Sequence record: OK331996.1
Origin: Escherichia phage vB_EcoM-G157lw
Direction: 5' to 3' (one strand)
Length of the DNA stretch: 64,000 nucleotides
Shown here: positions 1 through 62,267 of the stretch, in pieces
How the letters are laid out: the number at the start of each line of letters is the position of its first letter
Position numbering within the stretch: the stretch's first letter is position 1
Program-made: the position numbers and the translations under genes
Notes under the pieces: generated by a model
What the model was told of the DNA's origin: nothing
What the model saw: only the letters and a program-made list of their open reading frames with translations
The model's database searches: none

Positions 1-4
1 AATC

Positions 5-298
5 CTATTTAATGAATACTTTAGATGATGCCTGAGCCACAGTATCACCGCATGATATTGGATCAGCCATTTGAACAGCTTTCTTTCCAGTGACATATAC
101 CTTAGAAGTTCTGGGTTGTGTCACTCCGCCATGTGTTTCATATGGCTTTTTAATTTCTGTATGTTCTGTAATTGGATCGCCTGCTACTAGAACAGCAATT
201 CCTCCAGTGAATACTTTACTTTGTGTAGCATTCACAACTGTTGGAGGCCACGCTTCATGACCAGCAGTAACACATTTATCATAACTTAATCCTGACAT
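5..298 (-). CDS. 5.4: PAAR-repeat baseplate spike tip protein (T4 gp5.4-like), 97 aa
   Basis: Complete track ORF; size and position next to gene 5 match T4 gp5.4; recalled similarity. Confidence 0.8.
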
Positions 299-7950: not shown

Positions 7951-7955
7951 ATAAT

Positions 7956-41725: not shown

Positions 41726-42928
41726 ATGAAAGTATGCATTTTTATGGCTCGAGGTCTTGAAGGTTGTGGCGTAACTAAATTTTCTCTTGAGCAACGTGAT
41801 TGGTTTATTAAAAATGGTCATGAAGTAACTTTGGTTTATGCTAAAGATAAATCATTTACTCGTAATTGCGCGCATGATTATAAGTCATTTTCAATTCCGG
41901 TTTTATTGGCAAAAGAATACGATAAAACACTTAAGCTGGTAAATGATTGTGATATTCTAATTATCAATTCAGTTCCTGCTACTTCAGTCGAAGAAGACAC
42001 TATTAATAACTATAAAAAAATTATTGATAACATTAAACCTTCTGTTCGTGTTGTAGTTTATCAACATGACCATTCTTCTCTTTCTTTGCGCCGAAATTTG
42101 GGATTAGAAGAAACTGTTCGTCGAGCTGATGTTATTTTTAGCCATTCTGATAATGGTGATTTTAATAAAGTTTTGATGAAAGAATGGTATCCAGAAACCG
42201 TTTCTCTGTTTGATGATATTGAAGAAGCACCGACCGTATACAACTTTCAGCCTCCTATGGATATTGCGAAGGTTCGATCAACCTACTGGAAAGATGTTTC
42301 TGAAATTAACATGAATATCAACCGTTGGATTGGTCGCACGACTACATGGAAAGGTTTTTATCAGATGTTTGATTTTCATGAAAAACATCTTAAACCTGCA
42401 GGACTAAGTACTATTATGGAAGGTCTGGAACGTTCTCCAGCGTTCATTCCTATTAAAGAAAAAGGAATTCCATACGAGTATTATCGTCTTCATCAAGTAG
42501 ACCAAATTAAAATTGCTCCTAATTTGCCAACGCAAATTCTTGACCGTTATGTAAATAGCGAAATGCTTGAACGTATGAGTAAATCCGGTTTTGGTTATCA
42601 GTTGAGTAAGTTGGATAAAAAATATCTACAACGTTCTTTAGAATATACTCATCTCGAGCTTGGTGCATGTGGAACAATTCCGGTATTTTGGAAATCTACT
42701 GGCGAAAATTTAAAATTCCGTGTTGATAATACTCCGTTAATTTCTCATGATAGCGGTATCGTTTGGTTTGATGAAAATGACATGGAATCAACATTTGAAC
42801 GTATTAAAGAACTGTCATCTGACCGAGCTCTTTATGACCGCGAACGCGAAAAAGCTTATGAATTTTTGTATCAGCATCAAGATTCAAACTTCTGCTTTAA
42901 AGAACAGTTTGACATTATTACAAAATAA
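41726..42928 (+). CDS. a-gt: DNA alpha-glucosyltransferase, 400 aa
   Basis: Near-identical to recalled T4 alpha-gt (ICIFMARGLEGCGVTKFSLEQRDWFIKNGHEVTLVYAKDKSF...). Confidence 0.9.
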   Translation: MKVCIFMARGLEGCGVTKFSLEQRDWFIKNGHEVTLVYAKDKSFTRNCAHDYKSFSIPVLLAKEYDKTLKLVNDCDILIINSVPATSVEEDTINNYKKIIDNIKPSVRVVVYQHDHSSLSLRRNLGLEETVRRADVIFSHSDNGDFNKVLMKEWYPETVSLFDDIEEAPTVYNFQPPMDIAKVRSTYWKDVSEINMNINRWIGRTTTWKGFYQMFDFHEKHLKPAGLSTIMEGLERSPAFIPIKEKGIPYEYYRLHQVDQIKIAPNLPTQILDRYVNSEMLERMSKSGFGYQLSKLDKKYLQRSLEYTHLELGACGTIPVFWKSTGENLKFRVDNTPLISHDSGIVWFDENDMESTFERIKELSSDRALYDREREKAYEFLYQHQDSNFCFKEQFDIITK

Positions 42929-43104: not shown

Positions 43105-43728
43105 ATGAAAAAATATATAACTTATTTAACAATATATAGTGGAGATAAACTTCCTCCTTTTTATATTGGATCTACGTCTTTAGATAGGCATTTAGCTGGA
43201 TATCATGGTTCAGTTTTATCTAAAAAGTATAAGAAAATTTATAATAAAGAGCTTTCAGATAATCCTCACTTATTTGATTCATGCATTTTAGCTGAATTTG
43301 ATACGCGTGAAGAAGCTATTAAATGCGAGTTATATTATCAACGATTGCATGATGCAGTTAAAAATCCATTATTCTTTAATATGTCATATGCTGCTCCAAA
43401 AGGTTCATTTGGAAGAGATAATAAAGGACAAAATCATCCATTATATGGTTCTCATAATTGTAAAGGAAATATACATTCACATGATCCATTAACAGGAAAA
43501 TCTGCCTTTTTGCCTTATATTCCAGAAGGTTATGTAAAAGGAAGGTCAAATAAATTTAAAGCTTCATCACATAATAAAGGTAAAAAATGGTATAATAACG
43601 GAGTTAAGCAAATGTTATGTCATGAACCTCCTGGTCCTGAATGGACAAAAGGAAAAATTAAAGAACTGGTTTCAAAAGCAGCTAAATTAGGATGGAAAAG
43701 ACACCATGAAAATACTAAACTTGGGTGA
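43105..43728 (+). mobile_element. free-standing GIY-YIG homing endonuclease gene (seg-like), 207 aa
   Basis: GIY-YIG-like YITYLTIYSGDKLPPFYIGSTS; basic C-terminal half; 3-prime end overlaps the start of gene 47. Confidence 0.6.
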
Positions 43729-53044: not shown

Positions 53045-53140
53045 AGAATTCCCTAAAAAATTTTCACAAAACTGTTTACAAGACTGTTCCTCTGCGGTAC
53101 TATACAACTATCAACTACTGATACAGATTTGGAGAATAAA
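53045..53140 (+). repeat. promoter-leader module copy D
   Basis: gaattccctaaaaaattttcacaaaactGTTTACaagactgttcctctgcggtactatacaactatcaactactgatacag. Confidence 0.75.
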
Positions 53141-53377
53141 ATGAAAATTGTTATGGGATGCTTAGCAGTTTGTTTAGTTGCATTAGCAGCAGTTCCATTT
53201 GTTAGTGTTGAAAATGATACTCAACCTATGATTGAATCTAGCACCGTTATTCACACTAATGGTAAAATATCAGTTAAAATTGATGATAATCTTCATGTGA
53301 ATACAAATGGATCTTTAGGTGTACAAATAGGTAATACCTGCATAAGCACTACTGGAGTAATTACTACTTGCATTTGA
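53141..53377 (+). CDS. small secreted protein with signal peptide, 78 aa
   Basis: ATG after the leader GGAG; N-terminal hydrophobic signal. Confidence 0.55.
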   Translation: MKIVMGCLAVCLVALAAVPFVSVENDTQPMIESSTVIHTNGKISVKIDDNLHVNTNGSLGVQIGNTCISTTGVITTCI

Positions 53378-53775: not shown

Positions 53776-54027
53776 ATGGAAACTTTAGTAGCAGGTTCAA
53801 TTTTTATGGTTTTAGTTTCAGGTGTGTTGGCTATTATTATATACATGCTTCCATGGTTCATCGCCTTGATGCGTGGGTCAAAATCGACAGTAGGAATCTT
53901 TTTCACGTCTTTACTGTTTAACTGGTCAATTATTGGTTGGTTTATTACATTTATTTGGTCAATTGCGGGTGAAACTAAAAAGTCTGCACAGCCAAATCAG
54001 GTAATTATCATCAGAGAGAAGGAATGA
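53776..54027 (+). CDS. imm: immunity to superinfection membrane protein Imm, 83 aa
   Basis: Two-TM 83-aa protein between 43 and 42; recalled similarity to T4 Imm. Confidence 0.75.
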   Translation: METLVAGSIFMVLVSGVLAIIIYMLPWFIALMRGSKSTVGIFFTSLLFNWSIIGWFITFIWSIAGETKKSAQPNQVIIIREKE

Positions 54028-54180
54028 AAAGCAAAATTATAGCAGTGTTGCTTTTAATCTTGATGATTATAATAAGTATATACTATAGTGTAACGGTTCC
54101 TCTTATGATTCCAACTATTATTTTAGGTTGGAGCTTATTACTGTTACAAGTTAAATATGAATGTATCAATTGAGGTTTAA

Positions 54181-54921
54181 ATGATTAGTGACTCTATGAC
54201 AGTTGAAGAAATCCGTCTTCATTTGGGGCTTGCATTAAAAGAAAAAGATTTCGTAGTTGATAAAACTGGTGTTAAAACTATTGAAATTATTGGCGCATCA
54301 TTTGTAGCAGATGAACCGTTTATTTTTGGCGCTCTTAATGATGAATACATTCAGCGTGAACTTGAATGGTATAAATCTAAGAGCTTGTTCGTTAAAGATA
54401 TTCCAGGTGAAACACCGAAGATTTGGCAACAAGTAGCATCTTCTAAAGGCGAAATTAACTCGAATTATGGTTGGGCTATTTGGTCAGAAGATAACTATGC
54501 CCAGTATGATATGTGTTTAGCTGAACTTGGTCAAAATCCTGATTCTCGACGTGGTATCATGATTTATACTCGTCCATCCATGCAATTTGACTATAATAAA
54601 GATGGTATGTCAGATTTCATGTGTACTAATACAGTACAGTACCTGATTCGTGATAAGAAAGTAAATGCAGTAGTAAGCATGCGCTCAAATGACGTGGTCT
54701 TCGGATTCCGTAATGATTATGCATGGCAAAAATACGTATTAGATAAATTAGTATCTGATTTGAATGCCGGCGATTCAACTCGTCAGTATAAAGCAGGTTC
54801 TATTATATGGAATGTCGGAAGTCTTCATGTATATTCTCGTCATTTTTACTTGGTTGATCATTGGTGGAATACTGGCGAAACTCATATTGTGAAAAAAGAC
54901 TATAAAGGTGTGTGGAAATGA
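54181..54921 (+). CDS. 42: dCMP hydroxymethylase gp42, 246 aa
   Basis: Thymidylate-synthase-like fold; size and position match T4 gp42. Confidence 0.9.
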   Translation: MISDSMTVEEIRLHLGLALKEKDFVVDKTGVKTIEIIGASFVADEPFIFGALNDEYIQRELEWYKSKSLFVKDIPGETPKIWQQVASSKGEINSNYGWAIWSEDNYAQYDMCLAELGQNPDSRRGIMIYTRPSMQFDYNKDGMSDFMCTNTVQYLIRDKKVNAVVSMRSNDVVFGFRNDYAWQKYVLDKLVSDLNAGDSTRQYKAGSIIWNVGSLHVYSRHFYLVDHWWNTGETHIVKKDYKGVWK

Positions 54922-55760
54922 TTCAATTCGTAATTCCAAGTTATCAGCGTGTCGGGGCAGTTTCTGCCCTTGATATGTTTCCGACTGATTATGAACCGCA
55001 TATTGTAGTGCGTGAACATGAAGAAAAAGCTTATTATGATGCCTATGGGTCTAGAGCTAAAATTATAACTATTCCTGATGATGTAAACGGAATTGCCGGT
55101 ACTCGTAAAGCAATTACTGATATGTATGCAGGTCAACGAATCTGGATGATTGACGATGATACTACTATTCGTATGAGTTCAATGCGAAAAAGAGATGACC
55201 GTCGTTGTGTAGATAAAGTCAATCAATTAACCCGTGAACAGTTCTATGAATTGATTCAATACGTCGAAGATGCCATGGATTGCGGGTATTATCACGGTCA
55301 TGCTCGTCTACCTATTTTTAAAATTACTTCATCTTGGGGTAATTATCGTGAAAATTCATATGGATTCACGAATACATGGTATGACCTTGGAAAACTTACG
55401 ACAGAACAAATTGGGTATGGAAAAATTGATTTGTGCGAAGATATGTATGCATTTCTCAATTTAATTAATCAAGGTTATCCGCATTTGGCCTTGTTCAAAT
55501 ATCTGGTTGTATCTGGAAAAGCACAAGCTCCTGGCGGGTGTAGTTCAATTCGTAGTAATTCTAAACATAATAGAGCGCTTGAGCAAATCAATAGAGAGTT
55601 TCCAGAGCAAGCTCGTTGGAAAACTTCTAATATTGAAAAACGAAAATCGTTGGGTGAAGAAGACGAGCCATTAAAGGTTCTTCGCATGTGTGTTTCGCGT
55701 AAAGAAAAATCAGAAGCATTTCATAAGTTTAATGCTATTCATCCAATAGCAGTTGATTAA
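54918..55760 (+). CDS. GT-A-type glycosyltransferase at the beta-gt locus (not T4 beta-gt), 280 aa
   Basis: DxD-like RIWMIDDDTTI; no similarity to recalled T4 beta-gt; ATG overlaps gene 42 stop. Confidence 0.65.
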   Translation: MIQFVIPSYQRVGAVSALDMFPTDYEPHIVVREHEEKAYYDAYGSRAKIITIPDDVNGIAGTRKAITDMYAGQRIWMIDDDTTIRMSSMRKRDDRRCVDKVNQLTREQFYELIQYVEDAMDCGYYHGHARLPIFKITSSWGNYRENSYGFTNTWYDLGKLTTEQIGYGKIDLCEDMYAFLNLINQGYPHLALFKYLVVSGKAQAPGGCSSIRSNSKHNRALEQINREFPEQARWKTSNIEKRKSLGEEDEPLKVLRMCVSRKEKSEAFHKFNAIHPIAVD

Positions 55761-55837
55761 TGCCTAAATTTATTGTGTTATAATTACTCTATCTTTAACC
55801 AGTGAGGAAAATATAATGATGCCTATGGAAAAAATGA

Positions 55838-57019
55838 ATGTCTATTGCAGATTTAAAATCCCGTTTGATTAAAGCTTCCACTTCTAAAATGACTGCTGAA
55901 CTGACTACATCTAAATTCTTTAATGAAAAGGATGTAATTCGTACAAAAATCCCAATGCTTAATATTGCTATTTCTGGTGCGATTGATGGCGGTATGCAGT
56001 CTGGTTTAACTATTTTTGCAGGTCCTTCTAAACACTTTAAATCAAATATGTCTTTGACTATGGTTGCGGCATATTTGAACAAATATCCTGACGCGGTTTG
56101 TCTATTCTATGATAGTGAATTTGGTATTACTCCAGCTTATTTGCGATCCATGGGAGTTGACCCGGAACGAGTAATTCATACGCCGATTCAGTCAGTTGAA
56201 CAGCTGAAAATTGATATGGTGAACCAGCTTGAAGCTATTGAGCGCGGTGAAAAGGTTATTGTATTCATCGACTCAATCGGTAATATGGCTTCTAAGAAAG
56301 AAACGGAAGATGCCTTAAATGAAAAATCTGTGGCAGATATGACTCGTGCTAAATCACTGAAGTCATTATTCCGTATCGTTACTCCTTACTTTAGCATTAA
56401 AAATATTCCATGTGTTGCGGTTAACCATACAATTGAAACAATTGAAATGTTTAGTAAAACCGTGATGACAGGTGGTACAGGCGTAATGTATTCGGCTGAT
56501 ACAGTATTCATTATCGGTAAGCGTCAGATTAAAGATGGTTCTGATCTTCAGGGGTATCAATTTGTTCTAAATGTAGAAAAATCTCGTACCGTTAAAGAAA
56601 AAAGTAAATTCTTTATTGATGTTAAATTTGACGGTGGTATTGATCCTTATTCTGGATTGCTAGATATGGCTCTTGAATTAGGATTTGTAGTAAAACCTAA
56701 GAATGGTTGGTATGCTCGTGAATTTCTTGATGAAGAAACCGGTGAGATGATTCGCGAAGAAAAATCTTGGCGTGCAAAAGATACCAACTGCACTACATTC
56801 TGGGGTCCTTTATTTAAGCATCAACCATTCCGAGATGCTATTAAGCGTGCTTATCAGTTAGGTGCTATTGATAGTAATGAAATTGTTGAAGCTGAAGTTG
56901 ATGAATTGATTAACTCAAAAGTTGAAAAATTTAAATCTCCAGAAAGTAAAAGTAAATCAGCTGCTGATTTAGAAACTGACCTCGAGCAGTTAAGTGATAT
57001 GGAAGAATTTAATGAATAA
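55838..57019 (+). CDS. uvsX: recombinase UvsX (RecA-like), 393 aa
   Basis: Closely matches recalled T4 UvsX over its whole length. Confidence 0.95.
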   Translation: MSIADLKSRLIKASTSKMTAELTTSKFFNEKDVIRTKIPMLNIAISGAIDGGMQSGLTIFAGPSKHFKSNMSLTMVAAYLNKYPDAVCLFYDSEFGITPAYLRSMGVDPERVIHTPIQSVEQLKIDMVNQLEAIERGEKVIVFIDSIGNMASKKETEDALNEKSVADMTRAKSLKSLFRIVTPYFSIKNIPCVAVNHTIETIEMFSKTVMTGGTGVMYSADTVFIIGKRQIKDGSDLQGYQFVLNVEKSRTVKEKSKFFIDVKFDGGIDPYSGLLDMALELGFVVKPKNGWYAREFLDEETGEMIREEKSWRAKDTNCTTFWGPLFKHQPFRDAIKRAYQLGAIDSNEIVEAEVDELINSKVEKFKSPESKSKSAADLETDLEQLSDMEEFNE

Positions 57020-61748: not shown

Positions 61749-62267
61749 ATGCCACATTTCAACGAATGTAGTCAACTGATCGAAGGCGCTGATAAAGCTC
61801 AAAATGAATATTGGGATATTCTCGGTGATGAAAAAGACCCGCTGCAGGTAATGCTTGACATGCAGAAATCTCTGCAAATTCGTTTAGCTAAAGATAAACC
61901 TGAATATAATCGTCATCCTGATGACTTGGCTACTGCCGGTGAAGTTGTTGATTGGTTGCGTAATCAGAAAGATTATATTGACGATGAATTCCGTGAACTT
62001 CTGACTTCTCTTGGTGGTATGAGTAATGGTGAAAAAGACGCATCTGCTGTATGGAAACCTTGGAAGTCGCAGCATGGTGAACGTCGTGAAACTCTGATTA
62101 CTGATTTGTCTCCACAAGACCAACTGGAAATTAAATTTGAAATGATTGATATTCTCCATTTCGTTCTGAATATGTTCCAAGGTCTTGGTCTTACAGCAGA
62201 AGAAATCTTTAAACTTTATTATCTGAAAAATGCCGAGAACTTTGCTCGTCAGGACCGAGGTTATTAA
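61749..62267 (+). CDS. 56: dCTP pyrophosphatase gp56, 172 aa
   Basis: HFNEC..LIEG.DKAQNEYWDILGDEKDPLQVMLDMQ matches recalled T4 gp56. Confidence 0.85.
   Translation: MPHFNECSQLIEGADKAQNEYWDILGDEKDPLQVMLDMQKSLQIRLAKDKPEYNRHPDDLATAGEVVDWLRNQKDYIDDEFRELLTSLGGMSNGEKDASAVWKPWKSQHGERRETLITDLSPQDQLEIKFEMIDILHFVLNMFQGLGLTAEEIFKLYYLKNAENFARQDRGY

Follow-up and report, generated by a model that had tools for sequence, protein, structure and literature searches.

Sequence comparison and a predicted structure identify the gene between gene 42 and uvsX of Escherichia phage vB_EcoM-G157lw as a beta-glucosyl-HMC-alpha-glucosyltransferase gene of the T2/T6 type

The gene for the beta-glucosyl-HMC-alpha-glucosyltransferase (ba-gt, also referred to as ggt or TAGT) was named decades ago in the phages T2 and T6 and GenBank contains hundreds of records in which it is annotated. 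The hmC glucosylation pathway of the T-even phages has been summarised several times (PMC6024577, PMC11078745, PMC13216743, bioRxiv 10.64898/2026.02.25.707755). Deletion of ba-gt in T6 leads to the loss of the second glucose, leaving DNA with alpha-glucosyl-hmC only (PMC11078745), and such DNA shows a higher sensitivity to Brig1 and can be acted on by BapA. The synteny of ba-gt with beta-gt of T4 and its role in diglucosylation have been stated explicitly (PMC13390438). The T4 enzyme (GT63, GT-B, PDB 1JG7, Pfam PF09198) is likewise encoded downstream of gene 42, uses UDP-glucose as donor and forms a beta linkage on modified phage DNA; however, its acceptor is hmC itself, whereas the ba-gt enzyme acts on the glucose of alpha-glucosyl-hmC. 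The combination of alpha-GT and TAGT is the common arrangement, and the pair of alpha-GT and beta-GT known from T4 is limited to 6 of 753 genomes; in the same study, the TAGT of T6 was modelled as a GT-A enzyme, sister to GT2, with TarP as its nearest structure (PMC13216743). Gentiobiosyl-hmC accounts for approximately 5% in T2 and for about 70-72% in T6, although the two enzymes are 99% identical. In the phages NR1 and QOTSP of the Durham collection, HPLC/MS revealed around two thirds gentiobiosyl-hmC and one third bare hmC, with alpha-glucosyl-hmC in trace amounts and beta-glucosyl-hmC absent (PMC13390438), and the Durham phages EL, BGP and Geo show an intermediate phenotype with a 1:2:2 ratio.

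The DNA analysed here, called the window in the following, is a stretch of 64,000 nucleotides of Escherichia phage vB_EcoM-G157lw (OK331996.1), which contains these features:

41726-42928, + strand: alpha-gt (a-gt), DNA alpha-glucosyltransferase, predicted to make the alpha-glucosyl-hmC acceptor of the ba-gt enzyme (Pfam AGT PF11440, 784 bits)
54181-54921, + strand: gene 42, dCMP hydroxymethylase, the source of hm-dCMP (Pfam Thymidylat_synt; synteny with T2, T4 and T6)
54918-54921, + strand: ATGA, in which the start codon of ba-gt overlaps the stop codon TGA of gene 42 (read from the sequence)
54918-55760, + strand: ba-gt (ggt / TAGT), beta-glucosyl-HMC-alpha-glucosyltransferase CDS, 280 aa plus stop
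54933-54950, + strand: codons 6-11 of ba-gt, IPSYQR, putative N-terminal nucleotide-sugar-binding motif of GT2-like GT-A enzymes (alignment, model)
55152-55160, + strand: codons 79-81 of ba-gt (GAC GAT GAT), DDD, putative DxD metal- and UDP-sugar-binding motif (alignment, model)
55437-55442, + strand: codons 174-175 of ba-gt, E-D, candidate for the catalytic base in an inverting enzyme of the GT2-like type (by inference)
55838-57019, downstream of ba-gt: uvsX (Pfam T4_UVSX_C and RecA; synteny with T2, T4 and T6)
61749-62267, + strand: gene 56, dCTPase/dUTPase, which clears dCTP and thereby restricts incorporation to hm-dCTP (PHROG 173, E = 2e-46)

The order gene 42 – ba-gt – uvsX is that of T2 and T6, and with gene 42, gene 56, alpha-gt and ba-gt the set of pathway genes in the window is complete. 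PHROG 173 stands for nucleoside triphosphate pyrophosphohydrolases, and the 519 bp of gene 56 match the dCTP pyrophosphatase gene of phages ECML-363 and NR1 in length and order. The original prediction of a 280-aa protein between gene 42 and uvsX, made from the nucleotide sequence of the window, is borne out by the open reading frame at 54918-55760 and by the Pfam matches of both neighbours. This frame runs uninterrupted on the plus strand from either a GTG at 54912 or an ATG at 54918 to position 55760, and the ATG is the start codon annotated for the 843-bp CDS of T2, ECML-363, NR1 and RB32. The annotated coordinates of these four phages also imply the 4-base overlap with gene 42, and this ATGA arrangement probably couples the translation of ba-gt to that of gene 42. 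Promoter-like sites around ba-gt are not in excess (14 versus 13.4 in shuffled sequence), and neither are terminator-like sites (2 versus 1.5); a terminator-like hairpin at 54954-54970 was dismissed as a feature because it falls within the ba-gt CDS.

The surroundings of these genes contain further small reading frames. Between ba-gt and uvsX lie 77 bases (55761-55837) without segA, as in T2 and T6; in T4, this gene for a GIY-YIG homing endonuclease sits between b-gt and uvsX. A 207-aa HNH homing endonuclease is encoded at 43105-43728 (+) between alpha-gt and gene 47 (PHROG 10820, E = 1e-94) and shares 23 bases with the beginning of gene 47; at this position T4 carries the small gene 47.1, and such a gene is missing from T6 and NR1. 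Two small reading frames of unknown function are found between gene 43 and gene 42 (53129-53377 and 54024-54173, +). One product of this interval, of 82 aa, belongs to PHROG 4189 and is annotated in T2, not in T4; the other is a predicted membrane peptide of 49 aa (PHROG 3610), which is annotated as 42.1 in RB32.

A tblastn search with the ba-gt protein matched 688 of 50,697 phage records (best E = 3e-178), which shows that it is not a chance reading frame, and 249 of these matches are at least 99% identical to the protein of the window. Proteins with 100% identity are encoded by phages Maryam, UTI-E2, SholemSchwarzbard and ECML-363, and several such matches are annotated as 'beta-glucosyl-HMC-alpha-glucosyltransferase' or 'glucosyl transferase'. 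A second group of homologues, with around 65% identity, is found in T4-like phages of Klebsiella, Enterobacter and Citrobacter. Residues 1-275 match PHROG 842, the family of beta-glucosyl-HMC-alpha-glucosyltransferases (E = 6e-89), and residues 3-207 match positions 2-205 of the 205 positions of the Pfam profile PF20691 (TAGT, TET-associated glycosyltransferase) with 38.9 bits at a gathering cut-off of 27.5. This profile was the only Pfam match with E <= 10 and is present in nearly all collected homologues; NCBIfam holds no model for the protein. The 4.2 kb of DNA at the locus are 99.9% identical to their closest relative, phage ECML-363, and over the surrounding 24 kb the best identity to any single record is 97.6%, as expected of a mosaic Tequatrovirus. 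By sequence comparison, the reading frame is thus the gene of the Tequatrovirus beta-glucosyl-HMC-alpha-glucosyltransferase of the T2/T6 type.

The protein had been described as having no resemblance to T4 beta-gt, and no sequence similarity between the two was found: the best BLASTP alignment had an E-value of 2.2 over 8 residues, so that homology to T4 beta-gt was rejected, and a tblastn search with T4 beta-gt gave no match at E <= 10 in the whole 64-kb window. The same search with T4 alpha-gt matched positions 41726-42925 with 90.75% identity, in agreement with the prediction of a T4-like alpha-gt. The two second glucosyltransferases also differ in their fold, which is GT-B in T4 beta-gt and GT-A in the TAGT family (PMC13216743).

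For the analysis of the fold, ba-gt homologues were gathered in two rounds, 48 sequences were aligned and a structure was predicted with AF2. A search of the PDB with the single ba-gt sequence returned noise only (E > 1), and the 48-sequence profile gave one marginal match, the GT2 enzyme AvpGT (E = 0.1). Neither search of the PDB found a solved structure of any TAGT; the evidence for the fold therefore comes from the AF2 model. This model (mean pLDDT 93.3, pTM 0.91) has the beta-alpha-beta order of GT-A enzymes and forms a single Rossmann-like alpha/beta/alpha domain, which matches solved GT-A structures, and the two-domain GT-B fold of the T4 beta-gt type was not found in it. A Foldseek comparison with the PDB yielded TarP, WrtF, AvpGT, TarS and the K4 chondroitin polymerase as top matches (E around 2e-6, probability 1.0). 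These are all GT-A enzymes, the weaker matches are related nucleotidyltransferases, and no GT-B enzyme is among the matches listed. Judged by the model, the assignment of the ba-gt protein to the GT-A enzymes is correct. Bacterial inverting beta-glycosyltransferases of the GT2 family with a GT-A fold, such as TarP (6H1J), TarS (5TZE), AvpGT (9JMA) and SpsA (1H7L), are only 7-16% identical to it, and act on teichoic acid, lipid-linked glycans or small molecules rather than on DNA.

In the alignment of 48 sequences, only five columns show no variation, namely R11, R63, D79, D80 and D81. R11 is the last residue of the IPSYQR motif, whose P7 is kept in 45 of 48 sequences; the motif aligns with IPTYNR of AvpGT and is located in the first beta-strand of the model and the loop behind it. 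The three aspartates align with the DDD of AvpGT and directly follow the strand E74-78, the fourth beta-strand of the model, a placement known from GT-A enzymes. They belong to the sequence RIWMIDDDTTI (residues 74-84), which the original prediction had singled out as a DxD-like motif of the GT-A type, and the predicted model and the Foldseek matches agree with this reading. D175 is retained in 42 of 48 sequences within a region that aligns weakly with an 'eeD' segment of AvpGT. Since no TAGT structure has been solved, roles can be assigned to these residues by analogy: R11 and D79-81 would contribute to binding of the nucleotide sugar and the metal, and E174/D175 may provide the catalytic base, as in GT2 enzymes. 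The GT2-like fold, the beta-linked product and the alpha-linked donor UDP-glucose suggest an inverting, metal- and DxD-dependent mechanism.

The closest characterised enzymes are those of T2 and T6. T2 b-gt/ggt (LC348380 BBC14657, MH751506 AYD82639) has 280 aa, of which 278 are identical, and is encoded at the same locus with the same ATGA overlap, which bears out the expectation that a second glucosyltransferase of the T2/T6 type occupies this position; the two differences are H11 and S251 in T2, where the window encodes R11 and P251. The T6 enzyme (ba-gt / g-gt / TAGT), which is the one that has been tested genetically, is also encoded at the same locus and around 99% identical (258/261 residues in MH550421, 276/280 in AP018814), with Y40N, D55G and R106H as the only substitutions. 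The DDD motif is encoded by (GAT)3 in T6 and by GAC GAT GAT in the window, and the alpha-gt of T6 is of the T4 allele type and 91% identical to that of the window. The TAGT of NR1 differs in one residue (D24N) and the ECML-363 protein in none. The DNA of the locus is 98.5% identical in NR1 and 98.1% identical in QOTSP, both of which are isolates distinct from the mosaic phage studied here. Nothing contradicts the identification as ba-gt; its weak point is a quantitative one, namely that the T2 enzyme is 99% identical and yields only approximately 5% gentiobiosyl-hmC.

This gene is damaged in both public genome records of T6, by a different lesion in each. In MH550421, codon 10 of ggt is changed from CAG to the amber codon TAG (L001, about 7951-7953), a change private to that record, and the gene is annotated from M20 with 261 aa, a protein that would be without the first strand and the IPSYxR motif. 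In AP018814/NC_054907, Q10 is intact and one GAT of the (GAT)3 coding for the invariant DDD is lost (L012, about 1140-1145), leaving 279 aa. Both records thus probably represent a loss-of-function or otherwise altered ba-gt allele. Loss of the gene appears to be tolerated in laboratory stocks, and a decaying or unexpressed remnant was considered for the window as well; however, its reading frame is of full length and free of lesions, all invariant residues are kept, the protein is identical in several independent isolates and its start is coupled to the stop of the essential gene 42, which makes such a remnant highly improbable. We consider it equally implausible that the intact enzyme differs in specificity from that of T6 and glucosylates hmC directly, as T4 beta-gt does, or transfers another sugar. 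Specificities must vary within the family, as TAGT members occur together with an alpha-GT, with a beta-GT or alone (PMC13216743), but the protein of the window is around 99% identical to the characterised T2 and T6 enzymes and retains every invariant residue. Moreover, its close relatives occur in phages without detectable beta-glucosyl-hmC, in which around a third of hmC is bare, and an enzyme acting directly on hmC would have filled these positions.

The alternative with somewhat more weight, although still improbable, is that ba-gt is intact but T2-like, so that the second step would be inefficient and the DNA mostly alpha-monoglucosylated with a few per cent of gentiobiosyl-hmC. This reading draws on the 278 of 280 residues shared with the T2 enzyme and on the alpha-gt of the window, which is of the T2 allele type (98.75% identity). 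The alpha-gt proteins fall into two groups of alleles around 9% apart, one with T4 and T6 (5 differences), the other with T2, NR1, ECML-363 and the window (1-5 differences), and this grouping is independent of the presence of beta-gt or ba-gt; the protein of the window is 99% identical to that of NR1 (four differences). However, the alpha-gt of NR1 is also of the T2 type, with 3 differences from that of T2, its ba-gt protein is one residue off that of the window, and around two thirds of its hmC is gentiobiosylated, which rules out this alpha-gt allele as the cause of low diglucosylation. Furthermore, the window lacks both substitutions private to T2, R11H, which affects the family-invariant arginine, and P251S. 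The two substitutions are present in all T2 records examined, with R11H arising from CGT to CAT (codon 11 at 8105-8107 of L002, T2 LC348380; also in L009 and L010). Over an 81-nt segment, an exact match to T2 is found in only 8 of 444 records, seven of T2 itself and that of SV76, and H11 was seen only there; RB32 differs from T2 in this segment by the CGT-to-CAT base alone. Since R11 is invariant in the family, the T2 enzyme may be a natural hypomorph, and it is tempting to suggest, albeit tentatively and with more doubt than conviction, that the ba-gt allele sets the long-known difference in gentiobiosyl-hmC between T2 and T6 or NR1, with R11H as the cause in T2, and that the phage of the window, with R11 and P251, is a high-gentiobiosyl phage. 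A DNA composition like that of T6 and NR1 is in any case quite likely for the phage of the window, and the extent of its diglucosylation would, by analogy, be close to theirs.

The evidence gathered here concerns the identity of the gene, its fold, its conserved motifs, its genomic context and the upstream pathway genes; what is said about the chemistry of the T2/T6 enzyme, about the phenotype of the T6 deletion and about the nucleosides of near-identical phages comes from the literature. Considered as a whole, a T2/T6-type ba-gt that would make gentiobiosyl-hmC is the best explanation, and we regard it as very likely. Following the established pathway of the T-even phages, gp42 would make hm-dCMP and gp56 would clear dCTP, so that the polymerase builds hmC into the DNA, and alpha-gt would then attach alpha-glucose to approximately 75% of hmC. 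The ba-gt protein, presumably a soluble, GT2-like and DxD-dependent enzyme with a GT-A fold, would take UDP-glucose of the host as donor and transfer glucose with inversion to the 6-OH of the first glucose, thereby producing beta-1,6-glucosyl-alpha-glucosyl-hmC (gentiobiosyl-hmC). For T6, the beta-1,6 transfer from UDP-glucose to alpha-glucosyl-hmC is known through genetics, and for NR1-type phages through their DNA composition. The phage has no T4-type beta-gt and therefore no beta-glucosyl-hmC is expected; its DNA is predicted to contain gentiobiosyl-hmC, some alpha-glucosyl-hmC and around 25-33% bare hmC. The original prediction of gentiobiosylated rather than beta-glucosylated DNA is thus supported, as a prediction, by the identity of ba-gt and the absence of a T4-type beta-gt, and neither an alignment with T4 beta-gt nor the lack of a glycosyltransferase fold, which would have spoken against it, was found.

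The gene is an ordinary, already characterised one and the usual occupant of this locus, to which T4 beta-gt is the exception, and the window holds nothing novel. A correct annotation places the phage with T2, T6 and most Tequatroviruses, which combine alpha-GT and TAGT, and not with T4, which combines alpha-GT and beta-GT; for the former class, the prediction is gentiobiosyl-hmC along with bare hmC at a quarter to a third. This assignment bears on the interaction with host defence systems. According to published work, DNA of the gentiobiosyl class is still cut by GmrSD-type enzymes, the Brig1 glycosylase is active in vitro on alpha-glucosyl-hmC and inactive on gentiobiosyl-hmC, and BapA is unable to take glucose off gentiobiose. 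T2 and T6, whose DNA retains around 25% bare hmC, have been reported to be restricted by the 5hmC glycosylase Brig3.
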